This document shows, piece by piece, positions 9,253-28,816 of a stretch of 64,000 nt of DNA. The stretch's first letter is position 1; every line of letters begins with the position of its first letter. The notes beneath the pieces were generated by a model. It did not search any database and was not told the DNA's origin. It saw only the letters and a list, made by a program, of their open reading frames with translations. The stretch comes from Hyphomonas sp. (GTDB lineage: Bacteria; Pseudomonadota; Alphaproteobacteria; Caulobacterales; Hyphomonadaceae). The stretch covers positions 4,327-68,326 of the forward strand of contig NZ_JBBKXE010000048.1 in NCBI RefSeq assembly GCF_037969335.1, in the 5' to 3' direction. Made by a program: the position numbers and the translations under genes.

Positions 9253-9266
9253 ATGACAAGGATCAA
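9253..9266. promoter_or_regulatory. FNR/FixK-like box
   Basis: ATGAC-AAGG-ATCAA, centred 41.5 bp upstream of ATG 9301. Confidence 0.55.
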
Positions 9267-9300
9267 TTTGCGTGCGGCGAAGCCGTGCTTTCTTGCATCC

Positions 9301-9855
9301 ATGAAAATCGAACCTGAAATATCCTATCGAAACATTGAGCCGTCCCAGCAATTGCAGGAGCGGATCAACAAGGAAATCCGCCAGCTCGAAAAAATTGACC
9401 CGGAGCTGATCTCCTGCACGGTTCTGGTGGACGGCCCGAGCGGGCACAAACATGCGGGCGGACTGGCATCGGTCCGGATCCACCTGACGGCCCCGGGCCG
9501 CAAGGATATTGCCGTCACACACGTGGCCGACGACAATCATGCGCATGAGGACGTCCTGGTCAGTGTCCGGGATGCGTTCAAGGCCGCCCAGCGACAGATC
9601 AAGAAGCTCAAGCCTGACCACAGGGCCGAAGGGGCTGGTGACGACACGCGGGTCGCCGGCAAGATCGCGCGGTTCCTGGCCGAGGAGGGGGCGGGGTTCA
9701 TTGTCGCCGAAGACGGGCAGGACTATTACTTTCAGGCCCGCTCGGTCACCGATGCGCAGTTCAAGGCGCTGAAAGTCGGCGACGATGTTACGTTCAGGGT
9801 CGAGCCGGGCGACAAGGGCCCGCAGGCGGTTGCCGTTCACCTGCGCGGCGATTGA
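9301..9855 (+). CDS. HPF/RaiA-family ribosome-associated protein fused to a cold-shock domain
   Basis: ISYRNIEPS...VRIHLTAPG...VRDAFKAAQRQ, then GAGFI...YYF...LKVGDDVTF...GDKGPQA. Confidence 0.88.
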   Translation: MKIEPEISYRNIEPSQQLQERINKEIRQLEKIDPELISCTVLVDGPSGHKHAGGLASVRIHLTAPGRKDIAVTHVADDNHAHEDVLVSVRDAFKAAQRQIKKLKPDHRAEGAGDDTRVAGKIARFLAEEGAGFIVAEDGQDYYFQARSVTDAQFKALKVGDDVTFRVEPGDKGPQAVAVHLRGD

Positions 9856-9877
9856 GCGACAGGAAAAGGAACCTCAT

Positions 9878-10306
9878 ATGTTTGTAAGAAATTTCGACCT
9901 CATTCTCGACCCGGCCGACGCGATGCAGATTGCCATGCTGGTGCGCGAGTTCGACACGGAGGATATCGATCCGACGGGCGAGGAATATTCGGGCGATGAG
10001 GCCTTCGCAGACGAGGAGGACCTGCTCGAACAGGAGGAGAAGGACCCGGCTGATCCGGCGCTGGACGCGCTTGGCGCTGCCGTCAATCTCCTGAATGTCG
10101 ATGCGCAGCGAGACTTGCTCGCGCTGATGTGGGTGGGGCGCGGTGACTACAGGCCCGAGGACTGGGCGACAGCGCGCCATCAGGCCACCGATGTCGCCGA
10201 CATGCATCTGGCCAAGTATCTTGCAGAGACGCCGCTCGCGAGCACGTACCTCATCGAGGGACTGAGCCAGATGGGCTATTCCGTCGATGATTACGAGGCC
10301 TCCTGA
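9878..10306 (+). CDS. DUF3775 protein
   Basis: Acidic; LNVDAQRDLLALMWVGRGDY...W...YL.ETPLASTYLIEGL. Confidence 0.82.
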   Translation: MFVRNFDLILDPADAMQIAMLVREFDTEDIDPTGEEYSGDEAFADEEDLLEQEEKDPADPALDALGAAVNLLNVDAQRDLLALMWVGRGDYRPEDWATARHQATDVADMHLAKYLAETPLASTYLIEGLSQMGYSVDDYEAS

Positions 10307-11113: not shown

Positions 11114-12403
11114 TCAGATCAGTCCGATGGCCGCTGCGACGCCCAGGCCTGCTGCGCCCGCCAGCGCCATGAACACCGCGACAGCCATGCATTGGTGCCT
11201 GTAGGCGCCTTCACCCGCGACCAGTGCAATCGTGCCCTTCAGCAGCGTATTGGCGATCGCAGCCAGTGCGACGGCGATGGCGGCGGTTTCGGTGCTCAGT
11301 CCTTTCGCGCTCATCTGGATCATGGAGAGGCTGATGGCATCCACATCTGCGGCGCCCGCCACAAGGGCGACGCCGTAAATCCCTGTCGGCCCCAGCATGT
11401 CGGCGGCAGCCCTCGACAGAAGGAGCGCCGTCGCCAGAAGGGCCGCGAAGAATAGTGCCGACCTGACGTCGAGGGGGTTGGACAGGACGAGGTCCGGCGC
11501 GGCCTGTGTTCCCCGGCGCAGGAGGAAAATTGCAGCAATGGCCAATGCGACAACCAGCATGGACCCGAATGGCAAGGCGAGGGGGGCGACGAGTGATGGT
11601 GCGAAGGCGCCGAGAATAAAAGCGGTCCGGACGATCATGCCGGCCCAGGCCAGGGCCGTGCCTCCGACCAGGGCGCGCGCATCGCCCGCGTCGTTCCGGC
11701 TGAACCGCGCAAAGGAAAGGGTCACGGCGGTTGATGAGGCAAAACTGCCCGCGAGTGCCAGCAGTCCGATGCCGCGCCGGCTCCCCAGCCATTTGACGCC
11801 GAGATAGCCGACAAACCCCAGGCCACTGATCAGGACGACCATCCACCAGATCGCGCGCGGATTGAACGCGTCATAGGGCCCGTAGGCCTGGTCGGGCAGT
11901 ACGGGCAGGACGACGACCGAGATCAGCAACTGGCGGAGGAAAGCGCTGAGTTCCTTTTCCTCGATCCGGTGCAGCAGGGCGTGAAGGGGTGTTCTCAGCC
12001 AGAGCACGAATGCCACGATCACGGCCCCGGCCGCGGCTGCCTGGGAATGGCCGAGCACCGCCACGGCGCCGAGTGCATAGGCGCTGAGCGCGGCCACCAT
12101 CGTCGTGACACTGACGATGCGGGTAACATCAATCTGGGCTTCGAACCCTTCCCGCAAGAGCAGCGCGAGCGCGACAAAGCCGGCCGCGATGACAAAGCCA
12201 TTTCCCGTATCGACAAGGGCGCACAAACCGCCCAGAAATCCGATCAGTCCGATGGTCCGGAACCCGGCAACGCGCGAGCCGTCGGGATCGGCCCGATCTT
12301 TCCAGCCGCGCTCCAGCCCGATCAGCAAGCCAATGCCGAGCGCAGTCAGCAGACCGGTGAGGGGCGTCTCAGGTATCATCGGGACATATCCGGGACCATC
12401 CAT
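11114..12403 (-). CDS. MgtC/SapB + DUF4010 membrane protein
   Basis: IGLLIGLER, AGFRT, WWMVVLISGLGFVGY, SSTAVT, ADVDAISLS; start may be 12379. Confidence 0.85.
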   Translation of the reverse strand: MDGPGYVPMIPETPLTGLLTALGIGLLIGLERGWKDRADPDGSRVAGFRTIGLIGFLGGLCALVDTGNGFVIAAGFVALALLLREGFEAQIDVTRIVSVTTMVAALSAYALGAVAVLGHSQAAAAGAVIVAFVLWLRTPLHALLHRIEEKELSAFLRQLLISVVVLPVLPDQAYGPYDAFNPRAIWWMVVLISGLGFVGYLGVKWLGSRRGIGLLALAGSFASSTAVTLSFARFSRNDAGDARALVGGTALAWAGMIVRTAFILGAFAPSLVAPLALPFGSMLVVALAIAAIFLLRRGTQAAPDLVLSNPLDVRSALFFAALLATALLLSRAAADMLGPTGIYGVALVAGAADVDAISLSMIQMSAKGLSTETAAIAVALAAIANTLLKGTIALVAGEGAYRHQCMAVAVFMALAGAAGLGVAAAIGLI

Positions 12404-12423: not shown

Positions 12424-13620
12424 TTATGCGGCATACCGGCAGAGGGAAAAGGCTTCGCGCGCAATCACTTCTTCCTCATTGGTGGGGATTACGGCAACCG
12501 CGATCTCGGAGCGCTGCGTGGAAATAATGCCAGCACCGGATTCGTTCAGCGTCGCATCAAGTTCGATCCCCATCCAAGACAGGCGCGCGATGACACGCCG
12601 TCTGATCTCCTGTGAGTTCTCGCCGACACCGCCGGTGAACACGATGGCCTCGAGGCCATTGAGCGCGACCGTCAGGGACCCGATTTCCCGCGCAATCCTG
12701 TATGTGTACACATCAAGGGCCTCCTCCGCTTCCGGCGCGAGGCTGGCGAGCAGGTCACGGACATCCCCGCTTATTCCGGAGACTCCGAGCAGGCCGGATT
12801 TGTGATGCAGCATGTCCGAGACCGCGTCCGGCGTCATCTTTTGGCTGCCAATCAGGTAGAGGACCGCGCCCGGATCAAGGTCGCCGCACCGGGTGGCCAT
12901 AGGGACACCCGACAGGGCGGTCAGTCCCATAGAGGTGGCGATACTGGTGCCGTCCTGTATCGCGCAGAGGCTCGCCCCGTTGCCAAGGTGGGCCATGACC
13001 GTCTTGCGATGTGGCCGATCGGAAAAGGTCTGTGTCATCGCGCCCGCGATATAAGCGTAGGAGAGGCCATGAAATCCGTAGCGTTGGAGGCCGGACTCGG
13101 TCAGTTCCCGTGGCAGCGCATAGAGGCGGGCTTCTCTTGGCTGTGCGCTGTGGAAGGCGGTGTCGAAGGACAGGGATTGGGGAAGGCCCGGGAACTGTTT
13201 TGCCAGGCTGCGAACGCCGGCCAGATTGTAGGGCTGGTGATCGGGCGCAAAGACGGAGAGCCTGTCCAGCGCATCCAGCAGTTCAGGCGTCGCGAGGCGC
13301 GGACCGTCGCAGGACTGGCCACCATGCACGATCCGGTGGCCCGCTGCGATCAATTCGGTGCCATCGATGGCGGCGCTCAGGCAGCGCGCCAATTCCGGGA
13401 TGAGTTGTTCAGGTGCCGGGTCGACCTTTGACAGGGCATCGACGAACTGGCGCTCATGGCTTTCGCTCGTCGTATCCATATCGACTTTGAGGTTTGCGCC
13501 CAGTCCGGTCAGTTTGCCGCCAAGCAGGCGCCCTGCAAGCTGGTCTGCCCCGGCGCGGTAGAGCGAAAATTTCAGGCTGGACGATCCGGTGTTGAAGGTG
13601 GCAATAACCGGAGTGGTCAT
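12424..13620 (-). CDS. ackA: Acetate/propionate kinase
   Basis: NTGSSSLK, GHRIVHGG, FDTAFH, RYGFHGLSY, HLGNGAS, FTGGVGENS, PTNEE; start MTTPV at 13620. Confidence 0.93.
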   Translation of the reverse strand: MTTPVIATFNTGSSSLKFSLYRAGADQLAGRLLGGKLTGLGANLKVDMDTTSESHERQFVDALSKVDPAPEQLIPELARCLSAAIDGTELIAAGHRIVHGGQSCDGPRLATPELLDALDRLSVFAPDHQPYNLAGVRSLAKQFPGLPQSLSFDTAFHSAQPREARLYALPRELTESGLQRYGFHGLSYAYIAGAMTQTFSDRPHRKTVMAHLGNGASLCAIQDGTSIATSMGLTALSGVPMATRCGDLDPGAVLYLIGSQKMTPDAVSDMLHHKSGLLGVSGISGDVRDLLASLAPEAEEALDVYTYRIAREIGSLTVALNGLEAIVFTGGVGENSQEIRRRVIARLSWMGIELDATLNESGAGIISTQRSEIAVAVIPTNEEEVIAREAFSLCRYAA

Positions 13621-14561
13621 GGCGCACTCGCCTTCCAGGCGAGGTAGCACTTGGCCAGCGCGCAGGAGGCCAGCCGCTCTCTCACGCTGTCGGACCGGCT
13701 GGTCAGGATGATCGGAACCTGAGCGCCGACAACCAGGCCCGCGGCGGCGGCGCCGGCCAGGTAGTCGAGTTGCTTGGCGAGCATGTTGCCGGCCTCGATA
13801 TCCGGCACGATGAGAATGTCGGCGTCGCCAGCGACATCGGAGACCAGGCCCTTGATTTTTACGGCCTGTTTCGAGACAGCCAGATCGAAGGCGAGTGGAC
13901 CATCGAGCACACCGCCGGTGATTTGCCCCCGTTGGGCCATCTTGCAGAGCGCGGCTGCGTCGACGGTCGTCGGCATGTGGGGATCGACCTCTTCGGTGGC
14001 AGCCAGGATCGCCGTCTTCGGGGAGTCTATTCCGATGGCATTGGCCACGTCGATGGCGTTCTGGACAATCCATCTCTTGGTGTGCAGGTCCGGCGAGATA
14101 TTCAGGGCGCCATCGCTGATGAGCAGGTATTTCGGATAAGCGGGGGTCTGCATCACGAAGACATGGCTCATCCGGCGGTCGGTGCGCAGGCCGGTATTGC
14201 GGGCAACAATGGCTGCCATCAGTTCGTTTGTGTGCAGGGCGCCTTTCATCAGCGCCTGTACCTTGCCGGCCCGGGCGAGTTCGACGCCCGTCTGGGCGGC
14301 GGCGTGGCTGTGCGGTGTGTCGATGATCTCGGCGCCTGCCAGATCGAGACTGAATTGATCTGCTGCCGCGCGAATGCGCTGCTCCGGCCCTATCAGGACC
14401 GCCTTGATCAGACCGGTCGCCTGCGCGTCGAGAGCAGCCGCAAGGGCATTCTGGCTAACGGGGTGAATAACCGCCGTCGCTATCGGGGCGCCGTCTGCGC
14501 GTGAGAGGATTGACGCGAAGGCGTCGTGCGGATCGCCTTGTTCGGCGCTGCTTTGAGTCAT
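13617..14561 (-). CDS. Phosphate acetyl/butyryltransferase
   Basis: LMKGALHT, RMSHV, DGPLAFDLA, AGNMLAK, PIILTSRSD; overlaps the ackA start. Confidence 0.9.
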   Translation of the reverse strand: MTQSSAEQGDPHDAFASILSRADGAPIATAVIHPVSQNALAAALDAQATGLIKAVLIGPEQRIRAAADQFSLDLAGAEIIDTPHSHAAAQTGVELARAGKVQALMKGALHTNELMAAIVARNTGLRTDRRMSHVFVMQTPAYPKYLLISDGALNISPDLHTKRWIVQNAIDVANAIGIDSPKTAILAATEEVDPHMPTTVDAAALCKMAQRGQITGGVLDGPLAFDLAVSKQAVKIKGLVSDVAGDADILIVPDIEAGNMLAKQLDYLAGAAAAGLVVGAQVPIILTSRSDSVRERLASCALAKCYLAWKASAP

Positions 14562-14605: not shown

Positions 14606-15325
14606 TCAGTAACCGACCACGGACGCGTATTCTTCTTCGGTGGGTTCGCCAGCGGCGGCAATGAGGCGCTTGCGGTCAGATATCCGGATTCGGTTCGACT
14701 GTGGCAGTTCAATGATCCCTTGCCGCTTCAGCTGGTTCATCATGCGGCTGACTGTCTCCAGTGTCAGCCCGACATAGTCGGCCATGTCGCAGCGACTCAT
14801 CCGGATATCGACAAAGCTCGTCGCGGGGTCTGCGAAGCGGCTGTCGAGGAAGAGAAGAAAGGTTGCCGTGCGTTCCATCGCGCATTTGCGCCCGAGCAGA
14901 AGGGCTTGCTCGCGCGAGGCATTCAGCATGTCCCCGATCAGGGTGAAGATGCTCCGGCGAAATACGGCATTGTCTTGTAGTGCGCGATCAAAACTGGCTC
15001 GGGCGATGAAGTCGACCTCGACATCTGTCAGGGCTTCAGCACTGAGATTGTGAATGTCGGCGAAGGTCAGCGCGAGGAAATCTCCGTCGCTAGAAAAATC
15101 CTGAATCTGACGGCGCCCATCGGCCATGAGCTTGTAGAGGATTACCGTGCCGGAAATGATCTGGAACACGCCGGTCGGCTGGTCTCCCTGGAAGAACAGA
15201 TGCTCGTGCGGCGCAAAATGCAGCCTGTTTCGCGGCACACCATGCTCGTCCCTGTGCGCATGTGATGCGCGGACGCCCGCAGAGCGTGCAGCAGTAGGGA
15301 GTTGAAGAATGGTGTGAGCGGTCAT
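14606..15325 (-). CDS. fixK: Crp/Fnr regulator, FixK type
   Basis: DGRRQI; HTH SRCDMADYVGLTLETVSR (FNR-type ExxSR); no N-terminal Cys cluster. Confidence 0.8.
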   Translation of the reverse strand: MTAHTILQLPTAARSAGVRASHAHRDEHGVPRNRLHFAPHEHLFFQGDQPTGVFQIISGTVILYKLMADGRRQIQDFSSDGDFLALTFADIHNLSAEALTDVEVDFIARASFDRALQDNAVFRRSIFTLIGDMLNASREQALLLGRKCAMERTATFLLFLDSRFADPATSFVDIRMSRCDMADYVGLTLETVSRMMNQLKRQGIIELPQSNRIRISDRKRLIAAAGEPTEEEYASVVGY

Positions 15326-15575: not shown

Positions 15576-15589
15576 TTGAGCGAGATCAA
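15576..15589. promoter_or_regulatory. FNR/FixK box
   Basis: TTGAG-CGAG-ATCAA (1 mismatch), upstream of the WXXGXW gene. Confidence 0.7.
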
Positions 15590-16014: not shown

Positions 16015-16028
16015 TTGATGGAAATCAA
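16015..16028. promoter_or_regulatory. FNR/FixK box
   Basis: Perfect TTGAT-GGAA-ATCAA. Confidence 0.85.
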
Positions 16029-16089: not shown

Positions 16090-16527
16090 ATGAAGCTGAA
16101 AAACGGAACTTGGGTACTTGTATGTGACAGCGGCAAATTCCTGCTGCTCGAAAACAATGGCGACGAGGATATCATGGACCTGCGCGTGGTCGCACATGAT
16201 GAAGCCGTCAATCCAGCGACCAGCGACCAGGGTACGGATCGGCCAGGACGGTTCGCGATCTCGCCGGACCGGCGCGGAACGACCCAGGAGACCGACTGGC
16301 ACCAACTCGAGGAGACCCGTTTCGCCCAGGACCTGGCAGAAAAGCTCGGCCGGTGGGAAAATAACAAGCGCTTCAACGATCTTGTTATCGTGTCCGACAG
16401 CCGAACGCTCGGCGTGTTGCGGAGCGCGCTCTCAGACCAGGTGAAGAAGCGGGTTCGCGGTGAAGTCCAGAAGGATTATGCCCATCGCACGATCGAGTTC
16501 ATCGAGACGGCACTCGCGAAAGAATAG
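16090..16527 (+). CDS. Host attachment protein (AtsE-like / baeRF12 family)
   Basis: TWVLVCDSGK.LLLEN.G, TDRPGR, DWHQLEETRFA, LVIV....LGVLR..L, EVQKD; AGGAGG SD. Confidence 0.85.
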   Translation: MKLKNGTWVLVCDSGKFLLLENNGDEDIMDLRVVAHDEAVNPATSDQGTDRPGRFAISPDRRGTTQETDWHQLEETRFAQDLAEKLGRWENNKRFNDLVIVSDSRTLGVLRSALSDQVKKRVRGEVQKDYAHRTIEFIETALAKE

Positions 16528-16554: not shown

Positions 16555-17463
16555 TCATGTCCGGGATGGTCTGGCCGTCTTGAGCAGGCTGGACGTGGCG
16601 TCTGCCAGAATGCCGCTCACATCAATGGCGTTGCTTGGATGGGAAATGGTGTTGCTCGTTACTATACGGGCGGCACCAGCTTCCAGCAGTGCTTCATGCG
16701 CGCCATCGGCAAAAATACCATGCACCGCGCAGCATGTCGGGGGACGAAGACCCTGCTGGACGAGCTGACGCGTCACCGCAATCATGGTGGAGGCCGTTGA
16801 GATCGTGTCATCGACAATGACCGGTGTGTGATGGCGCCATTTTTCCAGATCGGGAAGCGAGATGTCCACGTCCCGGTCGCCATGCCTCGTCTTGGTCAGG
16901 ACGATATGATCCACGCCGGCCAGCGCAGCGATTTCCGAAACCCATTGCTCGCTTTCCGCATCCGGGCCGATCAGGAGGGGGGTGTCGATTTCCTGCCTGA
17001 TCCATGCGGCCATTGCAGGCGCGGCATGGGCCGCCACGGAAGGGATGTCGTAAATGTCCGATAGCGCCTTCCAGCGGTGCAGGTGGGGATCGGTTGTGAC
17101 GAGCCAGTCGACGCAGGACGAGACCCATTTCGCAAAATGCACGGACGTGATCGCCTCGCCCGGCTGGAACATCTTGTCCTGGCGCATATAGGGCAGGTAG
17201 GGCGCGACCAGCCCGACTGATTTGGCGCCAAGAGCGCGGGCTGTCTGCGCGGCAAAGGCAAGCGCAGGCAGCTTTGAATCGGGTTGGGAGAGGCCCGCAA
17301 GCAGGACGACGTCGCGCCCTTCCGGCGGCGTGTCGAAGCGCAGGTAGGTTTCGCCATCGGGAAACCGGCGCAGGTCGATTTCAGCCGTCTCCGCACCAAG
17401 CGCGCGGGCCAGAGGGGCGGACATCTGCGCGGTATCCTGCAGGGGCATCAGGAGCGGCTTCAT
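16555..17463 (-). CDS. Ribose-phosphate pyrophosphokinase-like protein
   Basis: FPDGE, PYLPYMRQDK, DPHLH, GPDAESEQW, VDDTISTAST. Confidence 0.9.
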   Translation of the reverse strand: MKPLLMPLQDTAQMSAPLARALGAETAEIDLRRFPDGETYLRFDTPPEGRDVVLLAGLSQPDSKLPALAFAAQTARALGAKSVGLVAPYLPYMRQDKMFQPGEAITSVHFAKWVSSCVDWLVTTDPHLHRWKALSDIYDIPSVAAHAAPAMAAWIRQEIDTPLLIGPDAESEQWVSEIAALAGVDHIVLTKTRHGDRDVDISLPDLEKWRHHTPVIVDDTISTASTMIAVTRQLVQQGLRPPTCCAVHGIFADGAHEALLEAGAARIVTSNTISHPSNAIDVSGILADATSSLLKTARPSRT

Positions 17464-18992
17464 GGTTTGGTCAATTCGATGATGTCCGGATTGGCCATGA
17501 CATAGTCGATGACGTAGGCGAGTTCGCCGGGAGTCTCCGTATAGAGCGTATAGAGCGGCTGCCCGCCTTTGACCCTGTCGCCCAGCCTGACATGGAGATC
17601 AAGACCGGCGGTCTTGTCGCCGGGCGCGCCTGCGAGTTTGGCGGCCCGGGCGAGGTGCCGACTGTCGATGCAGGTCACCCGGCCGGGAGCTGGCGCCAGG
17701 ACAGGGCGGCTGTGTTCCGCAAGGGTCGGCTCTCGAAATCCACCCTGGGCGCGGCAGATGGCTTCGAACTTGGTGTAGGCTGCTCCGCTGCGGAGCACGT
17801 TCAGTGCCATGGCCTTGCCCGCTCCCGCATCGGCCTTGCCGACAAGTTCAAGCAGGGCCCCGGCGATCAGGCAGGCGCGGTCTGCAAGATCGGCAGGGGC
17901 ATCCGGATCGTTGCGCAGGACGCCGAGAATATCACGCGCTTCGAGCGCGGGGCCGATGCCGCGCCCGACCGGCTGGGTGCCGTCGGTGACGAGGGAGAGG
18001 ACTTTCAGGCCGAATTCAGCGGCGACCTTTTCAAGAAGGGATTGCAGGGACAGGGCAGCGGCCTGGCTGCGGACCTTGGCTGTGGGCCCCACCGGAATGT
18101 CGATCACGACATGGGTGGCGCCGGCGGCGATCTTCTTTGACAGGACGGATGCGACGAGCGCGCCCTCGCTGTCGAGATCCAGCGCGCGCTCGATCCGGAT
18201 CAGGGCATCGTCAGCGGGACTGAAATGCATGCCGCCGCCCCAGACGAAACAGCCGCCTTCTTGGTCAACGACCCGCCGCATGCTTTCAAGATCGAGGTCG
18301 ACATCGGTCAGGACTTCCATCGTGTCGGCGGTGCCGGCGGGCGACGTGATCGCGCGGGACGATGTTTTCGGGATGGTCAGGCCGAGCGAGGCGCAGATCG
18401 CCACGACAATAGGTGTTGTCCGGTTGCCCGGCAGGCCGCCGACGCAATGCTTGTCGGCAATGGGCATGCGGTCCCAGGTCATCCTGCTGCCGGTTTCGAC
18501 CATGGCGCGGGTGAGGGCGATGGTTTCGGTTACGTCCAGTGGCAGAGCCGAGCATGCGGTGACGAAAGAGGACAGATGGATGTCCGAATAGCGCCCTGCG
18601 ACAATATCAGTGATGATGGCCAGCGTGCCAGCTGCGTCGAGCCGCTGGCCGAACACTTTGCCCCGAACCGTTTTGAGCGACTCGAGCGGCGCAGGATGGC
18701 TGATGGAAATCTCGCAACCATCGACAAGACCGAGCAGGCGCCAGGCGGCCTCCGACAGGCCGATCTCCTGATCGGAAACGAGGTCGGTCGATGTCTGGTA
18801 TAGCGTGGCGATAATGGAGCAGGTGCCATTGGTCAGCTCGACACGGGAATGCGCGGAAAACCCTTCGGATCGGCAGACAGGACTGTCTGCCTGAACGAAG
18901 GCCATGGCTTCATGCTGGGTATCAAGCCCGAGCCGCCGCGCGGTCAGCACATTGGTCAAGGTTGGCGGGCCCGGAGGTTGCGCGTCCATCAA
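17460..18992 (-). CDS. Thymidine phosphorylase family, archaeal-type AMP/NMP phosphorylase-like
   Basis: N-terminal extension, DKHCVGGLPGNRTT, KTSSRAITSPAGTADTMEVL, SKKIAAG, QPVGRGIGPALEA. Confidence 0.9.
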   Translation of the reverse strand: MMDAQPPGPPTLTNVLTARRLGLDTQHEAMAFVQADSPVCRSEGFSAHSRVELTNGTCSIIATLYQTSTDLVSDQEIGLSEAAWRLLGLVDGCEISISHPAPLESLKTVRGKVFGQRLDAAGTLAIITDIVAGRYSDIHLSSFVTACSALPLDVTETIALTRAMVETGSRMTWDRMPIADKHCVGGLPGNRTTPIVVAICASLGLTIPKTSSRAITSPAGTADTMEVLTDVDLDLESMRRVVDQEGGCFVWGGGMHFSPADDALIRIERALDLDSEGALVASVLSKKIAAGATHVVIDIPVGPTAKVRSQAAALSLQSLLEKVAAEFGLKVLSLVTDGTQPVGRGIGPALEARDILGVLRNDPDAPADLADRACLIAGALLELVGKADAGAGKAMALNVLRSGAAYTKFEAICRAQGGFREPTLAEHSRPVLAPAPGRVTCIDSRHLARAAKLAGAPGDKTAGLDLHVRLGDRVKGGQPLYTLYTETPGELAYVIDYVMANPDIIELTKP

Positions 18993-20353
18993 GCGAGATT
19001 CTGCGTTTCATTGTGTTCAGGCACGATAACGGACCAGCCCAGTTCTTCCTCGATCCGGTGACGAAGGGCATCGGCGGCGTCCGGCTCGCCATGGACGATG
19101 AAGGTCTGCTTCGGCGGTGATTCAAAGCCGCCCAGCCAGTGCATGATTTCATCCGCGTCGGCATGCGCCGAGAGCATGTGCAGGGTGGCGACTTCGGCGC
19201 GCACGTCATGGTACTCGCCGTGGATCTTGATCCGGTCAATTCCGGCGACCATGGCGGCGCCCCGCGTGCCGCCTGCCTGGAACCCTGCAAACAGGACGGA
19301 GTTGCGGGCGTCCGGCGCATAGAATTTCAGGTGGTGCAGGACCCGGCCGCCGGTCGCCATGCCGCTCGCCGCGATGATGATCTTGGGCATCTGGTCATAG
19401 TCGAGGGCCTTGGAGTCTTCGCTATCATGAACATATTTTGCGACATGGCATGTGTTCAGGCTCTGCGTCTTGCTGAGCTTGTGACAATAGGCATGCTTGC
19501 AGAAGAGTTCGGTGGCATCGATTGCCATCGGGCTATCGAGATAGACGGGCAGGTCCGGAATGCGGTTGGCCGCTTTCAGCTCGTGGAGGTGGTAGAGCAG
19601 TGTCTGGGCGCGCCCGACAGCGAAGGACGGAATGAGCACTGTGCCGCCGCGCTTGGCCGTCCGGTTGATGATGTCGGCCAGCGCATCCTGCGCATTGCGC
19701 GCGCCATGCTGGCGGTTGCCATAGGTCGACTCGACGAGCAGGTAGTCAGCCTGCCGGATAGGTGCAGGATCATACATGATCGGGTCGTTCGGGCGACCGA
19801 GATCCCCCGAAAAGACGATCTTGCTCGTCGGCGCCTGGAGCTCGACAATGGCCGCGCCGAGGATGTGGCCGGCAATCCGGAATGTCGCGGACACGTCCTT
19901 TGCCACGCTGGTCGGTGCGTCGAAGGGCGAGGTGTCAAACATTTCGAGTGTTCGATTGACGTCTTTCTCGCCATAGAGCGGCAAGGCGGGCTTGTGCTTT
20001 GAATAGCCATAGCGATTGGCGCGCTCGGCTTCGCGCTCCTGCAAGTAGGCGCTGTCGGGCAGCAGGATTCGGCAAAGGTCATAGGTTGCTTCGGTGCAAT
20101 GTATCTTGCCCCTGAAGCCATTCTTGACGAGGACAGGCAGGTAACCGGAATGGTCGATATGCGCATGGGTCAGGACCACGGCGTCGATGGTTGCCGGATC
20201 GACCGGCAGGTCTTTCCAGTTTCGCAGGCGCAGCTGCTTGTAGCCCTGGAACAGGCCGCAATCGACCAGGATGCGCGCCTCGCCCGTGTCGACCAGGTAT
20301 TTTGACCCGGTCACCGTACCAACGCCGCCGAGGAACTTGAGTTGAAGTGTCAT
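18989..20353 (-). CDS. MBL-fold beta-CASP ribonuclease
   Basis: GTVTGS, DCGLFQG, THAHIDHSG, AGHILG, FSGDLG, ESTYG, PSFAVGRAQ, ASGM..GGR, SAHAD, VHGE. Confidence 0.92.
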   Translation of the reverse strand: MTLQLKFLGGVGTVTGSKYLVDTGEARILVDCGLFQGYKQLRLRNWKDLPVDPATIDAVVLTHAHIDHSGYLPVLVKNGFRGKIHCTEATYDLCRILLPDSAYLQEREAERANRYGYSKHKPALPLYGEKDVNRTLEMFDTSPFDAPTSVAKDVSATFRIAGHILGAAIVELQAPTSKIVFSGDLGRPNDPIMYDPAPIRQADYLLVESTYGNRQHGARNAQDALADIINRTAKRGGTVLIPSFAVGRAQTLLYHLHELKAANRIPDLPVYLDSPMAIDATELFCKHAYCHKLSKTQSLNTCHVAKYVHDSEDSKALDYDQMPKIIIAASGMATGGRVLHHLKFYAPDARNSVLFAGFQAGGTRGAAMVAGIDRIKIHGEYHDVRAEVATLHMLSAHADADEIMHWLGGFESPPKQTFIVHGEPDAADALRHRIEEELGWSVIVPEHNETQNLA

Positions 20354-20484
20354 GTGTCGGCTTCCTCGGTGACCGTATCGGCAAGGGTGGACTGCGCGCA
20401 ACGCATCCGCTTGAAATCAGGCTATCGCATGTGACCTTGCAAAAGGGACGCATGCAACCCTGTCGTATCGCGTTGGGGGTGGCG

Positions 20485-20943
20485 CTAGAGACCGGCGATG
20501 GGCGTGGTGCGGATGGAGGCCTTGCCCAGATCCCGGATCGGCTTGGGGAGCGCCTGCAGCACATTCTCGATTTCGCCGGGTGAAATATACATGCTGAGCA
20601 CTTCAAACACGGCAGCGGTGACCGCGTCGGCTTTGACGCCGGGAAAGTTCCTGAACGCGTCTGCAATCGGCGCGAGGAAGGCCTCCAGCGATCTGTCAGT
20701 TGGGCGCTCTGACCCGGGCGACCAGCCTTCGAAGAATATGCCGCGCACGATCAACGGCATCTGCGATGAGAAGTTCGCGGCCAGCGGCACCGGCAGCCGG
20801 TCGCGAATTTCATGCATTACGACCTTGAGGGCCTGATGAGCCTGGGCAGGTTCGGTCCACGCGAGAACCTCCATCACATCCTTCAGCCATACATTGGCCG
20901 TCTGGAGCGCCTCGTCGAACTGGTGCAAACTTGTGTGGGTCAT
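20485..20943 (-). CDS. DUF2267 protein
   Basis: ANVWLKDV...VMHEIRDRL...QMPLIVRGIFFEGW...ISPGEIENV..ALPKPIR. Confidence 0.85.
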   Translation of the reverse strand: MTHTSLHQFDEALQTANVWLKDVMEVLAWTEPAQAHQALKVVMHEIRDRLPVPLAANFSSQMPLIVRGIFFEGWSPGSERPTDRSLEAFLAPIADAFRNFPGVKADAVTAAVFEVLSMYISPGEIENVLQALPKPIRDLGKASIRTTPIAGL

Positions 20944-20974: not shown

Positions 20975-21475
20975 CTAGTCGGACTTGATAGCGATTTTTT
21001 TCGCTGGCTGCCGGGCTGTTTCGGATTTCGGCAATGTGATCGACAAAACGCCCTTCTTCAGCGTTGCGTTGACTTTCGCGGCATCGACTTCGCACGGCAG
21101 GGGCACGTGCCGCTCGAAGGTGCCGTAGGCGCGCTCCATGCGATGGAAGTTCTTGCCCTTTTCTTCCTTTTTCTCTTCGCGCTTGCCTTTGATCATCACG
21201 CCCGTGTCGGTCAGGCTGATGTCGATATCCTTGCGGTCGATTCCCGGTAGGTCGAGGACAAGTTCGATTGCGTCATCGGTCTCGCTGACGTCGAGGTCTG
21301 TAGGGAGGGTGAATGCCTGTCCGCCATTGGCGCGACCAAATGCGGGCAGCGCCGGAATATAGCTGCTGAAAAGGTCGTCCATCTCTGCTTTCAGCTGGGA
21401 AACGGGATCATGACTGCGCAGCCATCCGAATGGCTGGCTCGGTGTGCGGTCTTCCTTCTTTTGCAAACTCGTCAT
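20975..21475 (-). CDS. Hsp20/alpha-crystallin small heat-shock protein
   Basis: DLPGID, ERAYGTFER...LP, ATLKKGVLSITLPK; GAGGAG SD. Confidence 0.95.
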   Translation of the reverse strand: MTSLQKKEDRTPSQPFGWLRSHDPVSQLKAEMDDLFSSYIPALPAFGRANGGQAFTLPTDLDVSETDDAIELVLDLPGIDRKDIDISLTDTGVMIKGKREEKKEEKGKNFHRMERAYGTFERHVPLPCEVDAAKVNATLKKGVLSITLPKSETARQPAKKIAIKSD

Positions 21476-21557: not shown

Positions 21558-21571
21558 TTGATTGGAATCAA
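21558..21571. promoter_or_regulatory. FNR/FixK box
   Basis: Perfect TTGAT-TGGA-ATCAA upstream of the hsp20 run. Confidence 0.85.
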
Positions 21572-23656: not shown

Positions 23657-25345
23657 ATGTATGATCTTGTCATCAGAAACGGAAAAGTCGTCGATGGTTC
23701 GGGCGCGCCCGCCTATAATGCGGATGTCGCGGTGAATGGGAACCGGATCGTCAAGATCGGGAAGATCACCGAAGCGGCGCGGTCGGAAGTCGACGCGGCC
23801 GGCAAGGTCGTGACGCCCGGCTTTATTGATCCCCATACGCATTTCGACGCCCAGCTCTTGTGGGACGGATGTGCGAAGCCTGCACTGTCCCATGGTGTGA
23901 CGACCATTGTGTCCGGCAACTGTTCCCTGTCGCTGGCGCCGCTCAAGGCCAAGCACCGGATGAAACTGGTCGGCATGTTCAACCAGATCGAAGAGATGCC
24001 GCTGAAAGCCTTCAAGGAAGGCGTCGTCTGGGACTGGGAAACCTTCTCCGATTATATTGCGCGCATCCGCAAGGGCCTGGCGATCAATGTTGCACCGCTG
24101 GTCGGTCATAGCGTCATCCGTCTCTGGGTGATGAATGATGCGGCCATGGAGCGGACCGCGACGGACGCCGAAATCGCCGAGATGCAGAGCGTGCTGCGTG
24201 AATGCCTCGACGCGGGTTCCGTTGGCCTGTCGACGAGCTATGTCGACATGGATGAACGCCTGCAGCCCGTGCCGAGCCGTTACGCCGATTCCCGCGAAGT
24301 CGAGGCGCTGGCCAGCGTCCTTGGCGAATATGGCCGGGTGCTGCAGATCGTGCCGGAATTCTATGACGCGGACCTGACGATTGCGCGTCTCGACCAACTC
24401 GCTGAGCTGTCGCTGAAGTACAATATCCCGACGACTTTCTCGCCAGTGTTCGCCAATGCCGACAATGTCGATGCTGTCGAGCGTGTGATGAAGCGCGTCG
24501 ACGAGCAGTTCGATCGGGGCGCACGGGTCTGGCCGCAAGTTCAGACGCGTCCGATCGACATCAGCTTCAGCTTTGCCGTTCCGAGCCTGTTGTTCATGCG
24601 GATGCCGACCTGGTACGGGATCATTCGGTTCGGCACGCCAGCAGACATCATGGCCGCGTTCAGCGATCCGGATAAACGCTCGAAACTTCTGCAGGAAGCG
24701 TCAGCGCTCGGGCCGCTGTGGCCAACCCTGATTTTCCGTCACGCCAACACCGAGGCGAACCAGAAATATATCGGACAGACGCTGGGCGAGATTGCCAAGG
24801 CGCGTGGGACCACGCCGGTCGAAGCGATGATCGACCTGTCACTGGAAGAGGAGCTGGACGCGCATTTCCTGTCCTCCGGCATGGGGCACAATGACGACAA
24901 GGTCGTCGGCGACCTGCTCAATCATCCCCGGGTCCATATCGGCGCCAGCGATGGCGGCGCACATATCCTGTCCTTCTCGACCTATGGTGACACAGGCTAC
25001 CTCTTCTCGCACTTCGTCCGCGATCTTGATGCCATGAGCCTCGAGTCCGCCGTGAAGAAGATCACGTCCGACACCGCGGCCATCTGGGGCATCCCGCAAC
25101 GGGGCCTGCTGCAGGAGGGCTATGTCGCCGATATTGCCGTATTCGATGCGGCGACGATTGAACGTGGCGAAGAGAAATTCGTGAATGACGTGCCGGGCGA
25201 CGGATACCGCTATGTGCGGGATTCCCATGGCGTGGACACCGTGATCGTTGGTGGCGGAATCGCCTGGACGGCCAAGGATGGTTACAAGGATGCCTGTGGT
25301 GAAGTTCTTCCCGGTGCCGACGTGAAGAAGAAGGTGGCCGCATGA
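23657..25345 (+). CDS. N-acyl-D-amino-acid deacylase family amidohydrolase
   Basis: VVDGSG, PGFIDPHTHFD, GVTT..SGNC, GASDGGAH, RGLL..GYVADI.VFD. Confidence 0.88.
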   Translation: MYDLVIRNGKVVDGSGAPAYNADVAVNGNRIVKIGKITEAARSEVDAAGKVVTPGFIDPHTHFDAQLLWDGCAKPALSHGVTTIVSGNCSLSLAPLKAKHRMKLVGMFNQIEEMPLKAFKEGVVWDWETFSDYIARIRKGLAINVAPLVGHSVIRLWVMNDAAMERTATDAEIAEMQSVLRECLDAGSVGLSTSYVDMDERLQPVPSRYADSREVEALASVLGEYGRVLQIVPEFYDADLTIARLDQLAELSLKYNIPTTFSPVFANADNVDAVERVMKRVDEQFDRGARVWPQVQTRPIDISFSFAVPSLLFMRMPTWYGIIRFGTPADIMAAFSDPDKRSKLLQEASALGPLWPTLIFRHANTEANQKYIGQTLGEIAKARGTTPVEAMIDLSLEEELDAHFLSSGMGHNDDKVVGDLLNHPRVHIGASDGGAHILSFSTYGDTGYLFSHFVRDLDAMSLESAVKKITSDTAAIWGIPQRGLLQEGYVADIAVFDAATIERGEEKFVNDVPGDGYRYVRDSHGVDTVIVGGGIAWTAKDGYKDACGEVLPGADVKKKVAA

Positions 25346-26304
25346 GCTGGCCGGGCATCACCGAGCGGCGGATCGCGACCAACGGAATTGAGCTTAATAT
25401 AGCCGAGGCTGGCGAGGGGCCGCTTGTCCTGCTGCTGCACGGGTTTCCGGAATCCTGGTATTCCTGGCGGCACCAGTTCAAGCCTCTCGCGGATGCCGGT
25501 TACCACGTGGTGGCGCCTGACATGCGGGGCTATGGCAAGAGCGACAAGCCGTCGGAGATCAAGGCCTATAACCAGGTCGAAGTGGTCAATGACATTATCG
25601 GTCTCGTGCCGGCGCTTGGATATGAAAAGGCCGTCGTGATCGGGCATGACTGGGGCGCGCCAACGGCATGGGCTACGGCGTTGAACCATCCCGACGTGGT
25701 CCGCGCCGTCGGGGCGCTGTCCGTGCCGTTCCTGCCGCGATCGCCAGTTCCGCCGATGGCGATGATGCGCGAAGTCTATAAGGGCCAGTTCTTCTACCAG
25801 CTCTACTTCTTCGAGCCGGGGGTCGCCGAAGCCGAGTTTGAAGCCGACATTCGCATGGCCCTGAAGAAATTCCTCGTCATGGCAGGCGGCGAAACGGACC
25901 TGTCGGCTTTGCCGCCGAAGGCGGAAGATGACGACATGTTCTCCAGCCTGCCCGATCCCGAAACGCTTCCTGCCTGGGTCAGCGAAGCAGACCTGGATTT
26001 CTATACCGGAGAGTTCGAGCGTTCAGGCATGCGCGGGCCGCTTAATTATTATCGCAACCACGACCTGACCTGGGAGCTGACCAAGGATTCGCCCACGACG
26101 ATCTCGCAACCCGCGTTTTTCCTCGCTGGCGCAAATGACGGCGTGATCATGATGGCCGAAGAGCTGGTGAAGATCATGCCGCACTTCGTGACGGATCTGC
26201 GCATCAACACGTTGATCCCGAAGATCGGTCACTGGACGCAGCAGGAGGCGCCCGAAGCGGTCAATCAGCACATCCTTGCATTCCTGAAAGAGATAGACGG
26301 ATGA
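25342..26304 (+). CDS. Epoxide hydrolase (alpha/beta fold)
   Basis: HGFPE, GYGKSD, GHDWGA (Asp nucleophile), YQLYF and LNYYR tyrosines, GHWTQQE. Confidence 0.88.
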   Translation: MSWPGITERRIATNGIELNIAEAGEGPLVLLLHGFPESWYSWRHQFKPLADAGYHVVAPDMRGYGKSDKPSEIKAYNQVEVVNDIIGLVPALGYEKAVVIGHDWGAPTAWATALNHPDVVRAVGALSVPFLPRSPVPPMAMMREVYKGQFFYQLYFFEPGVAEAEFEADIRMALKKFLVMAGGETDLSALPPKAEDDDMFSSLPDPETLPAWVSEADLDFYTGEFERSGMRGPLNYYRNHDLTWELTKDSPTTISQPAFFLAGANDGVIMMAEELVKIMPHFVTDLRINTLIPKIGHWTQQEAPEAVNQHILAFLKEIDG

Positions 26305-27809
26305 CCGAGACAGTTGCCGTCATCGGCGCAGGGATCGGCGGACTCTGCACGGCCCTCACACTGGCGCCTACGGGACGGAAAGTCATCCTGCTGGAGCGCG
26401 ATGCGTCACCGCCCAGCGATGATCCCGATACGGTGTTCCACGAATGGCGCCATACCGGTGTCGGCCAGTTGCGCCAGAGCCATGCCTTCCTCGCCCGGCT
26501 GCGCTCGATCATCAAGACCGAGCATCCCGGGCTGCTGGAAGACCTGCTGGCACTTGGCGTGCGGGAACTGCCGTTTGAAGCCATGCTGAGCGAAATGCAG
26601 CGCGAGTCTTACAAGGCCACGCCGGACGATTCAGAACTGACCATCATTACAAGCCGCCGGACAACACTCGAACTGGCGATGCGGCGCTATGTCGAAAAGC
26701 TGGAAAACGTCACGATCCGGTCCGGCTTCCTTGTACGCCGGCTGCTCACCCGGAAGGGATCTGGTGGCGTGATCGACGTGCTCGGCGTGGTTGGAGACAG
26801 CGGCGGCGATGAGGTGATGGTGAATGCCGACGTGGTTGTCGATGCGTCGGGCAAGAGCGGTTTCATTATCGACCAGGTGATGAAAGACAGCGCCAACACG
26901 TCCGAGGAACAGGAATCGGCAGGTATCCTCTACTTCACCCGCCATTACAGGCTGAAGCCGGGCATGGATGAGCCGTCGCGGACAGAGAACCCGCCAGCCA
27001 CCGGCGACCTCGGTTTCGTGAAATTCGGTGTCTTTCCCGGCGACAATGGCTGCTTCTCGATCACGCTTGCGATTCCGGAAATCGAAATGGAACTGCGCAA
27101 GGCCATCCTGGATCCTGACATTTTCCACGCCATGACGCTGCAGCTGCCCGGATTGAAACCCTGGACGAATGCAGACCGGTCCGATCCGGTTGGCCGGGTT
27201 CATGGCATGGGTGACCTGATCAGCCGGTGGCGCGAACTCGTCGTCGACGGCAAGCCCGCAACACACGGCTATTTTGCCCTTGGCGACACGCTGATCCGAA
27301 CGAACCCGCTCTATGGCCGGGGCTGTTCGTTTGCGGCCGCCAGCGCGCAGGTCTTGCGGAAAACACTCGATGAGAGTGCTGATCCGGACGCGCGGGCCCT
27401 GGCCTTCCACGAGCGTCTTCATAGCGAGTTGAAGCCCTATTACATCAACCAGCGCACACAGGACCGCTCGGCGATCAAGCGCGCCCGTCAGGCCCTGACG
27501 CCCGGCTATCGCAAGAGCCGCCGCGCCAAGCTGATGGAAAGCTTTTTCGAAGACGGTGTCGGCGTCGCGGTACGCTATGACATTGCCCTGATGCGGGAAG
27601 CGATGCGCGGGTTCCATATGCTGGAACATCCGAACAAATGGCTCGGCAGGCCGCGGAACCTCGCGAAGGTGTTCTATTACTGGATGCGGGGAAAGAAGCG
27701 CAATGCGGTTGCCTACCCGCCCAAGCCCGGCCCGGAACGGCGCGAGATGATGCAGGCATTGTCTTTGGACTTCCAGGCAGATATCGACCGTATCGCGCAG
27801 GGTGCGTGA
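26301..27809 (+). CDS. FAD-dependent oxidoreductase/monooxygenase
   Basis: GAGIGG, GVGQLRQSH, VVDASG, GD....NPLYGRG. Confidence 0.82.
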   Translation: MTETVAVIGAGIGGLCTALTLAPTGRKVILLERDASPPSDDPDTVFHEWRHTGVGQLRQSHAFLARLRSIIKTEHPGLLEDLLALGVRELPFEAMLSEMQRESYKATPDDSELTIITSRRTTLELAMRRYVEKLENVTIRSGFLVRRLLTRKGSGGVIDVLGVVGDSGGDEVMVNADVVVDASGKSGFIIDQVMKDSANTSEEQESAGILYFTRHYRLKPGMDEPSRTENPPATGDLGFVKFGVFPGDNGCFSITLAIPEIEMELRKAILDPDIFHAMTLQLPGLKPWTNADRSDPVGRVHGMGDLISRWRELVVDGKPATHGYFALGDTLIRTNPLYGRGCSFAAASAQVLRKTLDESADPDARALAFHERLHSELKPYYINQRTQDRSAIKRARQALTPGYRKSRRAKLMESFFEDGVGVAVRYDIALMREAMRGFHMLEHPNKWLGRPRNLAKVFYYWMRGKKRNAVAYPPKPGPERREMMQALSLDFQADIDRIAQGA

Positions 27810-27833
27810 TGCAGGACAGGCGGGATTCGACCG

Positions 27834-28547
27834 ATGCAGGCTGACGAGACGGGAAAGCGCGAGCTGGCGAAAGCAGAGCGTCGGTCACGGATCGTCCATG
27901 CTGCGCGCGATCTCATTCGTGAGACGGGCGATACGAATCTGTCGATGCGCATGATCGCCAAGCGGGCCGATGTCAGCTTGGCTACGCCCTACAATCTCTT
28001 CGGGTCAAAGCATGCGGTCGTTCTGGCCGTGTTTGAGGATGAGCGCGATTTCGCCGAACGCTTCAGCCGGTTGAAGGCCGCCAATGCCATTGAGCGGCTG
28101 TTCGATGCCCATGCGCTGGCGACGAGTTATTTCACGGACGATCCGGATTTCTACAGGCCGCTCTGGAGGGCCCTGCTGGATGCGCAGGGCGGCAACGAAA
28201 CGGGGCTGGCGACGCCGGAGCGCCTGGAGCAGAACCGTGAGGCCTGGCACATGCTACTGGAGGCGGCCCAACAGGAGGGCCTGCTCGACTCCGCCGTGCC
28301 TGCCGATTTGCTCGAAAGGACGCTGTCCTTCTTTGCCAATGGGGTGATGCTGTCCTGGGCGATGGGCGTGCTGCCGACCCGCGACCTGCGGCCGTCGTCA
28401 GCCCTCGGTTATGCCATGGTCCTGCGGGGGGCAGCGACCGAACAGGGCAGGGATATCCTGACGGCCCACATTGAATCATTCCAGACCATGCTGCGCCGTT
28501 CGAACGAGCCGGCCAAAGGCCGCCGCCGGGTGTCACTGAGCACCTGA
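27834..28547 (+). CDS. TetR family regulator
   Basis: HTH SMRMIAKRADVSLATPYNLFGSK. Confidence 0.9.
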   Translation: MQADETGKRELAKAERRSRIVHAARDLIRETGDTNLSMRMIAKRADVSLATPYNLFGSKHAVVLAVFEDERDFAERFSRLKAANAIERLFDAHALATSYFTDDPDFYRPLWRALLDAQGGNETGLATPERLEQNREAWHMLLEAAQQEGLLDSAVPADLLERTLSFFANGVMLSWAMGVLPTRDLRPSSALGYAMVLRGAATEQGRDILTAHIESFQTMLRRSNEPAKGRRRVSLST

Positions 28548-28772
28548 TCCGCCGATGCCTTCTGACGACTTGAAACATTCTGACGTGGACTGGGCTCTAC
28601 TCGTCCGCTTCGCGCTGTAGCCGTCTCGGACCTTTCATTCGAGAATCAGTGATGCTGGCGGGAGTGATGGCCTGACCCGTTCCGTTACAGTTTCCCCCGG
28701 GCATGCCTCAATGCCTGGACCTTGTGTGAACGATTTATCAAATTTCAGCTTCCCTTCGCGGCGTGCCCGCGA

Positions 28773-28790
28773 CTGTCATCTGCGCGTCAC
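28773..28790 (+). promoter_or_regulatory. Pho box (PhoB site)
   Basis: CTGTCAT-CTGC-GCGTCAC, 7-4-7 direct repeat upstream of TBDR-phoD. Confidence 0.6.
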
Positions 28791-28816
28791 CGACAGGCCG
28801 TAGCTGGCTCCAACAG

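Follow-up and report, generated by a model that had tools for sequence, protein, structure and literature searches.

A nucleotide phosphorylase coupled to a PRPP-synthase paralog in proteobacteria: a candidate nucleotide-ribose recycling module with an accessory beta-CASP ribonuclease

Principal finding

A 64-kb stretch of DNA from a Hyphomonas-like bacterium, referred to here as the window, carries a trio of minus-strand genes at 16555-20353. These encode a beta-CASP ribonuclease (RNase), a protein resembling the nucleoside monophosphate (NMP) and adenosine monophosphate (AMP) phosphorylases, and a paralog of phosphoribosyl pyrophosphate (PRPP) synthase, also known as Prs. The feature is real and conserved, and it is a bacterial variant of the archaeal NMP shunt with a candidate second half. 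Its core unit is the phosphorylase together with the Prs paralog, and the RNase is a frequent, sometimes fused accessory. The proposal that the trio acts as a nucleotide-ribose recycling module, placed in a low-oxygen and dormancy island of the FixK/FNR type, deserves about even weight on the sequence evidence.

About a tenth of the sampled proteobacteria have an archaeal-type NMP phosphorylase locked to a PRPP-synthase paralog, often with the RNase added. If the pair converts NMPs to PRPP, or uses ribose-1,5-bisphosphate (R15P) in some other way, it would represent a new bacterial branch of pentose-bisphosphate metabolism and a new activity for the Prs fold. It would also explain how ribosomal RNA is reused by non-growing, oxygen-starved bacteria, including nodule bacteroids (the operon with the same product names is FixK2-controlled). 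In the literature searched, no paper on the biochemistry of the bacterial phosphorylase-Prs pair was found.

Gene arrangement and conservation

The nuclease gene most likely starts at ATG 20353, which has the sequence GAGGAAG 7 nucleotides (nt) upstream; homologs align to the longer open reading frame (ORF) that begins with TTG only from residue 14-20. Its stop codon, TGA at 18991-18989, is overlapped by the start codon of the phosphorylase gene. Here, ATG 18989 gives the sequence TGATG and an overlap of 1 nt, and the Met that it encodes is invariant in 35 homologs. An alternative start at TTG 18992 is possible and would lengthen the overlap to 4 nt. The phosphorylase gene ends with TGA at 17462-17460, and the Prs-like gene starts within this end at ATG 17463 (ATGA, a 4-nt overlap) and runs to 16555. 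A preliminary description of this DNA had reported three genes with overlapping stop and start codons, and both junctions, at 18989 and 17463, bear this out. The first overlap, which it had placed at 18989-18992, stands as a gene overlap, and its extent of 4 nt holds only with the TTG start. The motifs it quoted, DKHCVGGLPGNRTT, KTSSRAITSPAGTAD and VDDTISTAST, are all present in the translations of the ORFs.

Conservation was assessed in an even sample of 401 Pseudomonadota genomes, in which relatives are not independent and the counts are descriptive only. The phosphorylase scores above its cut-off in 46 genomes and the Prs paralog in 42, with both present in 41. In 37 of the 46 phosphorylase carriers, the phosphorylase gene has the Prs gene as its immediate 3' neighbour on the same strand, and among 16 adjacent pairs that were inspected, the two genes overlap by 4 nt in 12 and by 1 nt in two. 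Because of this direct adjacency in 37 carriers, and of overlaps in 14 of 16 adjacent pairs, the arrangement is not due to chance. Related loci were collected in two ways: a search with a single protein yielded six close loci, and the broader context came from a search of genomes. No further gene is found consistently beside the pair in these related loci, where genes for a P-type ATPase, acetate kinase, MacB, Usp and Host_attach recur loosely.

The nuclease is associated with the pair less strictly. The beta-CASP family is present in 26 of the 46 phosphorylase carriers, compared with 53 of the 355 non-carriers. Its gene adjoins the pair in 14 carriers, ten of which have the order nuclease, phosphorylase, Prs, as in the window, and four the order phosphorylase, Prs, nuclease. 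In addition, nuclease-phosphorylase fusion proteins of 957-965 amino acids (aa) occur in seven clusters formed at 90% identity. Both an isolate genome and an independent assembly confirm the fusion of Solimonas flava; the gene for the Prs paralog comes next and overlaps it by 4 nt, and Usp, Crp-family, S30AE, PFK and ADH genes surround the locus. Since the two genes are adjacent in 14 of 46 genomes, and since the Solimonas flava fusion is genuine, the sequence data support a functional tie between nuclease and phosphorylase.

Other apparent fusions were set aside. A triple fusion (P0131) was discounted: its contig is labelled 1.64x and a separate 72-aa fragment of the metallo-beta-lactamase (MBL) protein precedes it, which suggests frameshift errors. 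A phosphorylase-Prs fusion (P0171) was likewise discounted, as neighbouring genes on its contig are split in pieces. Further phosphorylase-Prs fusions (P0170 and P0172-P0174) are rare and putative. The idea that the nuclease was recruited twice, once 5' and once 3' of the pair, was also dropped, because the partner enzymes of the two gene-order groups are about as diverged (42-47% identity for the phosphorylases and 32-43% for the Prs paralogs) as the nucleases (36-41%). One ancient trio with later rearrangement is equally likely.

The phosphorylase

The phosphorylase exceeds the cut-offs of NF003338 (656.7 bits against 434) and TIGR02645 (572 bits against 434.6). NF003338 is also above its cut-off in three of the control genomes, a set that includes archaea. 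In contrast, the protein falls well below the cut-offs of models for thymidine phosphorylase (TP) and pyrimidine nucleoside phosphorylase (PyNP), with 126 against 571 bits for TIGR02643, 182 against 409 for TIGR02644, 193 against 269 for NF004490 and 133 against 559 for NF004747. Its best match in the PDB is the AMP phosphorylase of Thermococcus kodakarensis (4GA4-6, E value 9e-100, about 45% identity), compared with an E value of 8e-37 for the best classical TP/PyNP structure. Approximately 100 residues precede the Glycos_trans_3N domain and form an additional N-terminal domain ahead of the TP core. Here, the alignment to 4GA5 begins at query residue 69 and chain residue 51, and homologs from DPANN archaea align from the N-terminus.

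The active site was read by comparing motifs with those of the T. kodakarensis and DPANN proteins. TP-type enzymes have the consensus blocks GGVGD and SGRGLG.TGGT. In their place, the window protein has the AMP-phosphorylase-type blocks GG.PGN[KR]T and KTSSRAITS..GTAD, and across the bacterial family (27-35 members) the longer forms DKHC(V/I)GG(L/I)PGNRT(T/S) and PKTSSRAITSPxGTAD are invariant. Among the archaeal homologs found, the closest are DPANN proteins that bear an intein and have identical active-site blocks. Their genes adjoin a gene of the IF-2B family, to which R15P isomerase belongs, and in one case stand directly after the gene for RuBisCO, the carboxylase/oxygenase of ribulose 1,5-bisphosphate. 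The Lys of DKHC, where T. kodakarensis has DVHS, was considered as a mark of another anion such as pyrophosphate (PPi); this was rejected because DKHC is found as well in the DPANN homologs that neighbour RuBisCO.

As a separate observation, three of the DPANN homologs (P0141, P0146 and P0165; loci L064 and L065) contain a LAGLIDADG intein, which is inserted precisely within the active-site block, between DKH and the Cys of C.GG.PGNRT.

Taken on its sequence, the protein is supported as an enzyme of the archaeal NMP/AMP-phosphorylase type and not a thymidine phosphorylase. The archaeal NMP phosphorylase cleaves AMP, CMP and UMP by phosphorolysis to yield R15P (PMC9700705). The name given to the window protein in the database, "thymidine phosphorylase family protein", and its Pfam domains, which are the generic TP domains, would fit a simpler account. 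According to this, an ordinary TP or PyNP, a redundant Prs isozyme and an unrelated MBL hydrolase share an operon and form no pathway. This is very improbable given scores of 126-193 bits against TP/PyNP cut-offs of 269-571, an AMP phosphorylase as the closest structure, the extra N-terminal domain with AMP-phosphorylase-type motifs, and the fusions and conserved coupling described above.

The nuclease

The nuclease matches the Pfam domains Lactamase_B, Beta-Casp and RMMBL with 122.8, 70.4 and 58.4 bits, respectively. The HAHIDH motif (of the HxHxDH type) and the other metal-binding and beta-CASP motif residues can be read in its translation. Its best PDB match is RNase TTHA0252 of Thermus thermophilus (2DKF, E value 1.5e-71), followed by Cas14 and aCPSF1/CPSF73. 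It scores below the equivalog cut-offs of RNase J (19 against 820 bits), aCPSF1 (291 against 580) and Cas14 (410 against 800), and only its core aligns to these models, without their extra domains (the RNase J C-terminal domain, KH domains and the C-terminal part of Cas14). As judged from these features, the nuclease is an RNA-type beta-CASP enzyme with intact catalytic residues, and TTHA0252 is its closest characterised relative.

A 5'-3' exo-RNase releases 5'-NMPs, which are the expected substrates of the phosphorylase type described above. This activity has been reported for TTHA0252 (PMC4229858). The two enzymes share the same compact architecture of MBL, beta-CASP and RMMBL domains (PDB 2DKF and 3IEK-3IEM for TTHA0252). 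They differ in setting, as TTHA0252 is described as a stand-alone enzyme of global mRNA decay, whereas the gene for the window nuclease is coupled to that of a nucleotide phosphorylase, and the two are fused in some species.

A nuclease combined with enzymes that cleave nucleotides can deplete nucleotide pools, and the beta-CASP protein resembles the nuclease domain of Cas14; together, these could indicate an anti-phage or toxin-like nucleotide-depletion system. This is the most improbable of the explanations considered. The Cas14 score is only about half of its cut-off, and no meaningful PADLOC match was obtained, the best one (E value 1.5e-4) covering a generic MBL segment. Moreover, the trio or pair stands in a stress and low-oxygen island or among housekeeping genes, not in a defence island, and its Bradyrhizobium counterpart is under FixK2 control (PMC9104804).

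The PRPP-synthase paralog

The third protein matches NF005537, the PRK07199 subfamily, over its full length with 396.9 bits (cut-off 322). Among 14 control genomes, this model finds a match only in Methanocaldococcus jannaschii, below the cut-off. The best PDB matches are archaeal PRPP synthases of class III, with 1U9Y from M. jannaschii (E value 1e-35) ahead of 3LPN/3MBI and 4TWB, and class I enzymes match at E-21 or weaker. A canonical class I prs gene (382 bits) stands separately in the same genome, on contig C7.

The motifs of PRPP synthases (TIGR01251) are all invariant in 18 family members and align to 1U9Y; these are FxDGE, RQD, the His of DxH, the K.R flexible loop and the DDxx(S/D)TxxT loop. 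The likeness to the class III enzymes of M. jannaschii (1U9Y), Thermoplasma volcanium (3LPN) and Sulfolobus solfataricus (4TWB) includes FPDGE, YxRQD, the KTR flexible loop and DDxISTxxT. The paralogs differ from them in forming a separate bacterial subfamily with invariants of its own in the same 18 members, namely GPDxES in the PPi loop (SPDxGG in class I), DPHLHR, W174 and an HxxN near the C-terminus. The loop that binds ribose 5-phosphate (R5P) has the family consensus DDIxS(T/S)GxT, which is near canonical, and most members keep the usual glycine. A predicted complex of phosphorylase and Prs paralog, computed with a separate alignment for each protein, scored 0.01, which is evidence neither way.

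With regard to protein identities, the preliminary description had proposed an AMP-phosphorylase-like enzyme and a beta-CASP RNase. The former agrees with the N-terminal extension, the motifs, the 4GA4-6 match and the failed TP/PyNP cut-offs, and the latter holds at the sequence level through the domains, the intact motifs and the TTHA0252 match. It had also described a divergent PRPP loop, VDDTISTAST, in the third protein. The loop is present; its divergence is not a family trait, as the ST-AS-T form is confined to a Hyphomonas-type clade.

The proposed low-oxygen setting

Perfect FNR/FixK boxes of the form TTGA-N6-TCAA occur three times in the 64 kb, compared with an expectation of 0.53, and none of 100 shuffles reached three. 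All three lie within 6 kb around the module (Table 1). Two of them flank the genes of a Crp/FNR-type regulator and a baeRF12 protein, which are divergent. The regulator is considered FixK-like because its recognition helix reads ETVSR and the N-terminal Cys cluster of FNR is absent. The hsp20, DUF2267, nuclease, phosphorylase and Prs genes form a run on the same strand, and no terminator-like site is present in the spacers of this run, including the one between DUF2267 and the nuclease. In a 94%-identical relative (locus L004), a perfect box, TTGAGTGAGATCAA, lies about 80 nt upstream of the nuclease gene at the homologous place.

Further support for a role in low oxygen comes from Bradyrhizobium diazoefficiens. 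Here, bll3117 (thymidine phosphorylase family), bll3116 (ribose-phosphate pyrophosphokinase) and bll3115 (MBL fold) are induced by microoxia at both the transcript and the protein level (PMC6515984), and they are predicted to constitute an operon that depends on FixK2, with a FixK2 box at -74 (PMC6515984, PMC9104804). The same three annotated products are encoded in the window, as matched by product name and gene order, and FixK2 control there is paralleled by the FixK-type boxes and regulator here. The gene order differs, with phosphorylase, Prs, MBL in Bradyrhizobium and MBL, phosphorylase, Prs in the window; in loci with the former order, the beta-CASP protein is only 36-41% identical to the window nuclease. 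The two papers give the Bradyrhizobium operon no function. The low-oxygen-activated lxa locus of Burkholderia cenocepacia resembles the surroundings of the trio in its acetate kinase, phosphate acetyl/butyryl transferase, stress proteins and low-oxygen control, and it differs in that the trio of phosphorylase, Prs or MBL is not named in the main text of that report (PMC3721108). The FixK-type boxes and the regulator, like the Bradyrhizobium data, are consistent with a low-oxygen role of the module, in line with the use in hypoxia that had been suggested at the outset.

In E. coli, AMP nucleosidase removes AMP under energy stress. The phosphorylase could be an AMP sink of a similar kind, pulling adenylate kinase towards ATP and so protecting the energy charge, while the Prs paralog would be an ordinary PRPP synthase, expressed in hypoxia, that rebuilds nucleotides on recovery, and the nuclease would help to dismantle RNA. 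The island would suit this well, with its ribosome hibernation factor, Hsp20, acetate kinase and Pta, as would the Usp, S30AE, PFK and ADH genes at the Solimonas locus and the canonical motifs kept in the Prs paralog. Nevertheless, it is an unlikely account, as it leaves the near-obligate translational coupling across 37 genomes and the family-specific invariant changes of the Prs paralog unexplained and the fate of R15P open.

Proposed reactions and the fate of R15P

The recycling route that we favour would have three steps. In the first, the beta-CASP enzyme would degrade RNA in the 5'-to-3' direction and release 5'-NMPs, as its homology suggests. In the second, for which homology, motif identity and archaeal context speak, the phosphorylase would convert NMP and inorganic phosphate (Pi) into a free base and R15P. 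In the third, which is put forward as a hypothesis, the coupled Prs paralog would pull the sequence forward by the reaction R15P + ATP → PRPP + ADP, or would process the 5-phosphoribosyl product in another way. The outcome would be the conversion of surplus RNA into PRPP and free bases for about one ATP, with the ribose-phosphate reused for ATP, NAD and other nucleotides. The first two steps, from RNA to NMP to base plus R15P, are probable, and it is also probable that a metabolite passes directly between the phosphorylase and the Prs paralog. The specific conversion of R15P to PRPP by the paralog is a tentative and rather doubtful suggestion. The line from RNA through NMP to R15P had been drawn in the preliminary description, and the types of nuclease and phosphorylase, the fusions and the archaeal context now give it good support by inference.

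In the archaeal NMP shunt, or pentose bisphosphate pathway, the phosphorylase (TK0353) is followed by R15P isomerase and type III RuBisCO. The bacterial arrangement resembles it in having a first enzyme of the same type, at about 45% identity, with the same extra N-terminal domain and active-site blocks, and in the DPANN homologs of identical motifs that stand beside IF-2B and RuBisCO genes. In contrast, a search found no gene for RuBisCO, R15P isomerase or another member of the IF-2B family in the window or in its own assembly (89.6% complete), and none of the 45 other carrier genomes reached the R15P-isomerase cut-off. Weaker matches in these genomes lie far from the pair and are presumably MtnA. 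The fixed partner in bacteria is instead the PRPP-synthase paralog, often with the beta-CASP RNase. Among haloarchaea, homologs of NMP phosphorylase are confined to species with Rubisco (PMC9700705); because of this, and because none of the 45 bacterial carriers reached the isomerase cut-off, the bacterial arrangement truly departs from the archaeal pathway. The route must depend on neither RuBisCO nor R15P isomerase. This agrees with the earlier statements that neither gene is in the window and that the route would be RuBisCO-independent, in so far as neither was found in the genome and no carrier of the 45 has the isomerase.

The phosphorylase and the Prs paralog must have a metabolite in common, for which AMP and a 5-phosphoribosyl compound are candidates. 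The equilibria of phosphorolysis favour the nucleotide. For this reason, and because the enzymes that provide the pull in archaea are absent, consumption of R15P by the paralog makes the simplest scheme. The same net reaction, R15P + ATP → PRPP + ADP, is carried out by E. coli PhnN, and no other bacterial conversion of R15P to PRPP is established (PMC9700705). PhnN is a P-loop kinase, whereas the candidate here has the Prs fold, and no PhnN was found in the window's own genome at its 89.6% completeness.

The same equilibria could be read in the opposite direction, in which nucleoside-phosphorylase-type enzymes favour synthesis. The pair would then serve base salvage, with the Prs paralog making the donor and the phosphorylase catalysing base + R15P → NMP + Pi. 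The donor would be either PRPP from an ordinary second isozyme or R15P made from R5P and ATP, and the whole would be a broad-specificity, low-ATP route for times when de novo synthesis is limited. No R15P sink was found in the carrier genomes, the paralog keeps its full catalytic set and many genomes have the pair without the nuclease, all of which would suit synthesis. Against this, a nuclease that is fused to the phosphorylase or often encoded beside it makes NMPs the natural substrate and not the product, and the Prs-like gene is placed after the phosphorylase gene. Salvage in this direction is a possibility that we rate as low, if less so than the AMP sink.

An energy-conserving alternative within the degradative route is improbable, and it is mentioned for its consequences. 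Here, the energy of the N-glycosidic bond in NMPs derived from RNA would be stored by the phosphorylase in the 1-phosphate of R15P, and the Prs paralog would catalyse R15P + AMP → R5P + ADP, or an equivalent, in a manner like the reverse reaction of PRPP synthase. R5P would then pass through pentose and acetyl-phosphate routes to the acetate kinase encoded next door. If this were true, a cell starved of oxygen would draw on its own RNA for substrate-level phosphorylation, again by a new activity in the Prs fold.

Several points weigh against the recycling route. All the chemistry ascribed to the bacterial family is drawn from sequence likeness. The phosphorylase scores 458.2 bits on the AMP_phos equivalog model TIGR03327, below the cut-off of 535. 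The Prs paralog keeps all canonical PRPP-synthase motifs, as a plain enzyme using R5P and ATP would, and no Prs-fold enzyme is known to transfer a gamma-phosphoryl group to a 1-phosphate. The phosphorylase is present without the paralog in five carrier genomes. With regard to low oxygen, the box directly upstream of the nuclease gene in the window is decayed, having two mismatches in one half compared with that of L004, and the equivalence with Bradyrhizobium rests on product names and gene order, not on sequence comparison. Finally, the largest carrier clade (f37; 18 genomes, small) has the pair among housekeeping genes, and its loci have neither an adjacent nuclease nor FNR boxes. RNA degradation and hypoxia are therefore not obligatory to the core function, and the triad, which the preliminary description had taken as the unit, does not hold as such.

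Further features of the window and related loci

The features around the module are collected in Table 1. The real start of the baeRF12 gene is probably Met64 of the long ORF, near 16090, as the Pfam match starts at residue 70. This neighbour recurs in five of 25 related loci.

Table 1. Coordinates of the module and of nearby features in the 64-kb window
Feature	Position	Strand	Basis
FixK-type Crp/FNR regulator	14606..15325	-	Pfam cNMP_binding, HTH_Crp_2, Crp
Perfect FNR/FixK box between regulator and baeRF12 genes	15576..15589		TTGA-N6-TCAA scan
Perfect FNR/FixK box upstream of baeRF12/Host_attach gene	16015..16028		TTGA-N6-TCAA scan
baeRF family 12 / "host attachment" protein, convergent with Prs-like gene	16090..16527	+	Pfam PF18856, PF10116
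PRPP-synthase paralog, 302 aa, PRK07199 subfamily, class-III-like	16555..17463	-	NF005537, PDB
NMP(AMP)-phosphorylase-like protein, 509 aa; database name "thymidine phosphorylase family"	17460..18989	-	NCBIfam, PDB
Beta-CASP metallo-beta-lactamase ribonuclease, TTHA0252-like, 454 aa	18989..20353	-	Pfam, PDB match, ribosome-binding site before ATG 20353
Decayed FNR/FixK half-site, about 60-70 nt upstream of nuclease ATG	20411..20424		Comparison with relative L004
DUF2267 gene, 131 nt upstream of nuclease gene	20485..20943	-	Pfam PF10025
Hsp20 gene, possibly heading a transcription unit of five genes	20975..21475	-	Pfam HSP20
Perfect FNR/FixK box TTGATTGGAATCAA, about 85 nt upstream of hsp20	21558..21571		TTGA-N6-TCAA scan

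Next to the FixK-type regulator, at 12424-14561 on the minus strand, are genes for an acetate kinase and a protein like the phosphate acetyl/butyryl-transferases. The Pfam match of the acetate kinase ORF begins at residue 159, which probably places its true start well downstream of the first ATG; two long ORFs overlap here. A gene for an MgtC/DUF4010 membrane protein follows at 11114-12403 on the minus strand; such a gene is found near the trio in three loci, including L040 and L041. At 9253-9855 on the plus strand, a single ORF of 200 aa encodes an S30AE ribosome hibernation factor fused to a C-terminal cold-shock domain, and a DUF3775 ORF comes after it at 9785-10306. A YflT-domain stress protein and a sensor histidine kinase of the PAS/HAMP type are encoded at the edge of the island, at 5241-8824; the kinase could be an oxygen-sensing input.

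Beyond the island, at 23657-31307, there is an unrelated catabolic and transport block with genes for an amidohydrolase, an alpha/beta hydrolase, an FAD oxidoreductase, TetR and a TonB-dependent receptor. A PhoD phosphatase gene lies at 31409-33085.

Among the related loci, a gene for a heavy-metal P-type ATPase (HMA and E1-E2 ATPase domains) lies within a few kb of the pair in seven of 25 (L042-L046, L048 and L055), which is reminiscent of the FixI-type copper pumps of low-oxygen regulons. In two loci of the f37 type (L049, 11393-12241; L057, 8515-9495), the Prs paralog is followed by a gene for a DUF4743-NUDIX hydrolase and then by mnmA, with a mutase gene of the PGM/PMM family opposite; the position of a Nudix enzyme next to one acting on PRPP or R15P may or may not be meaningful.

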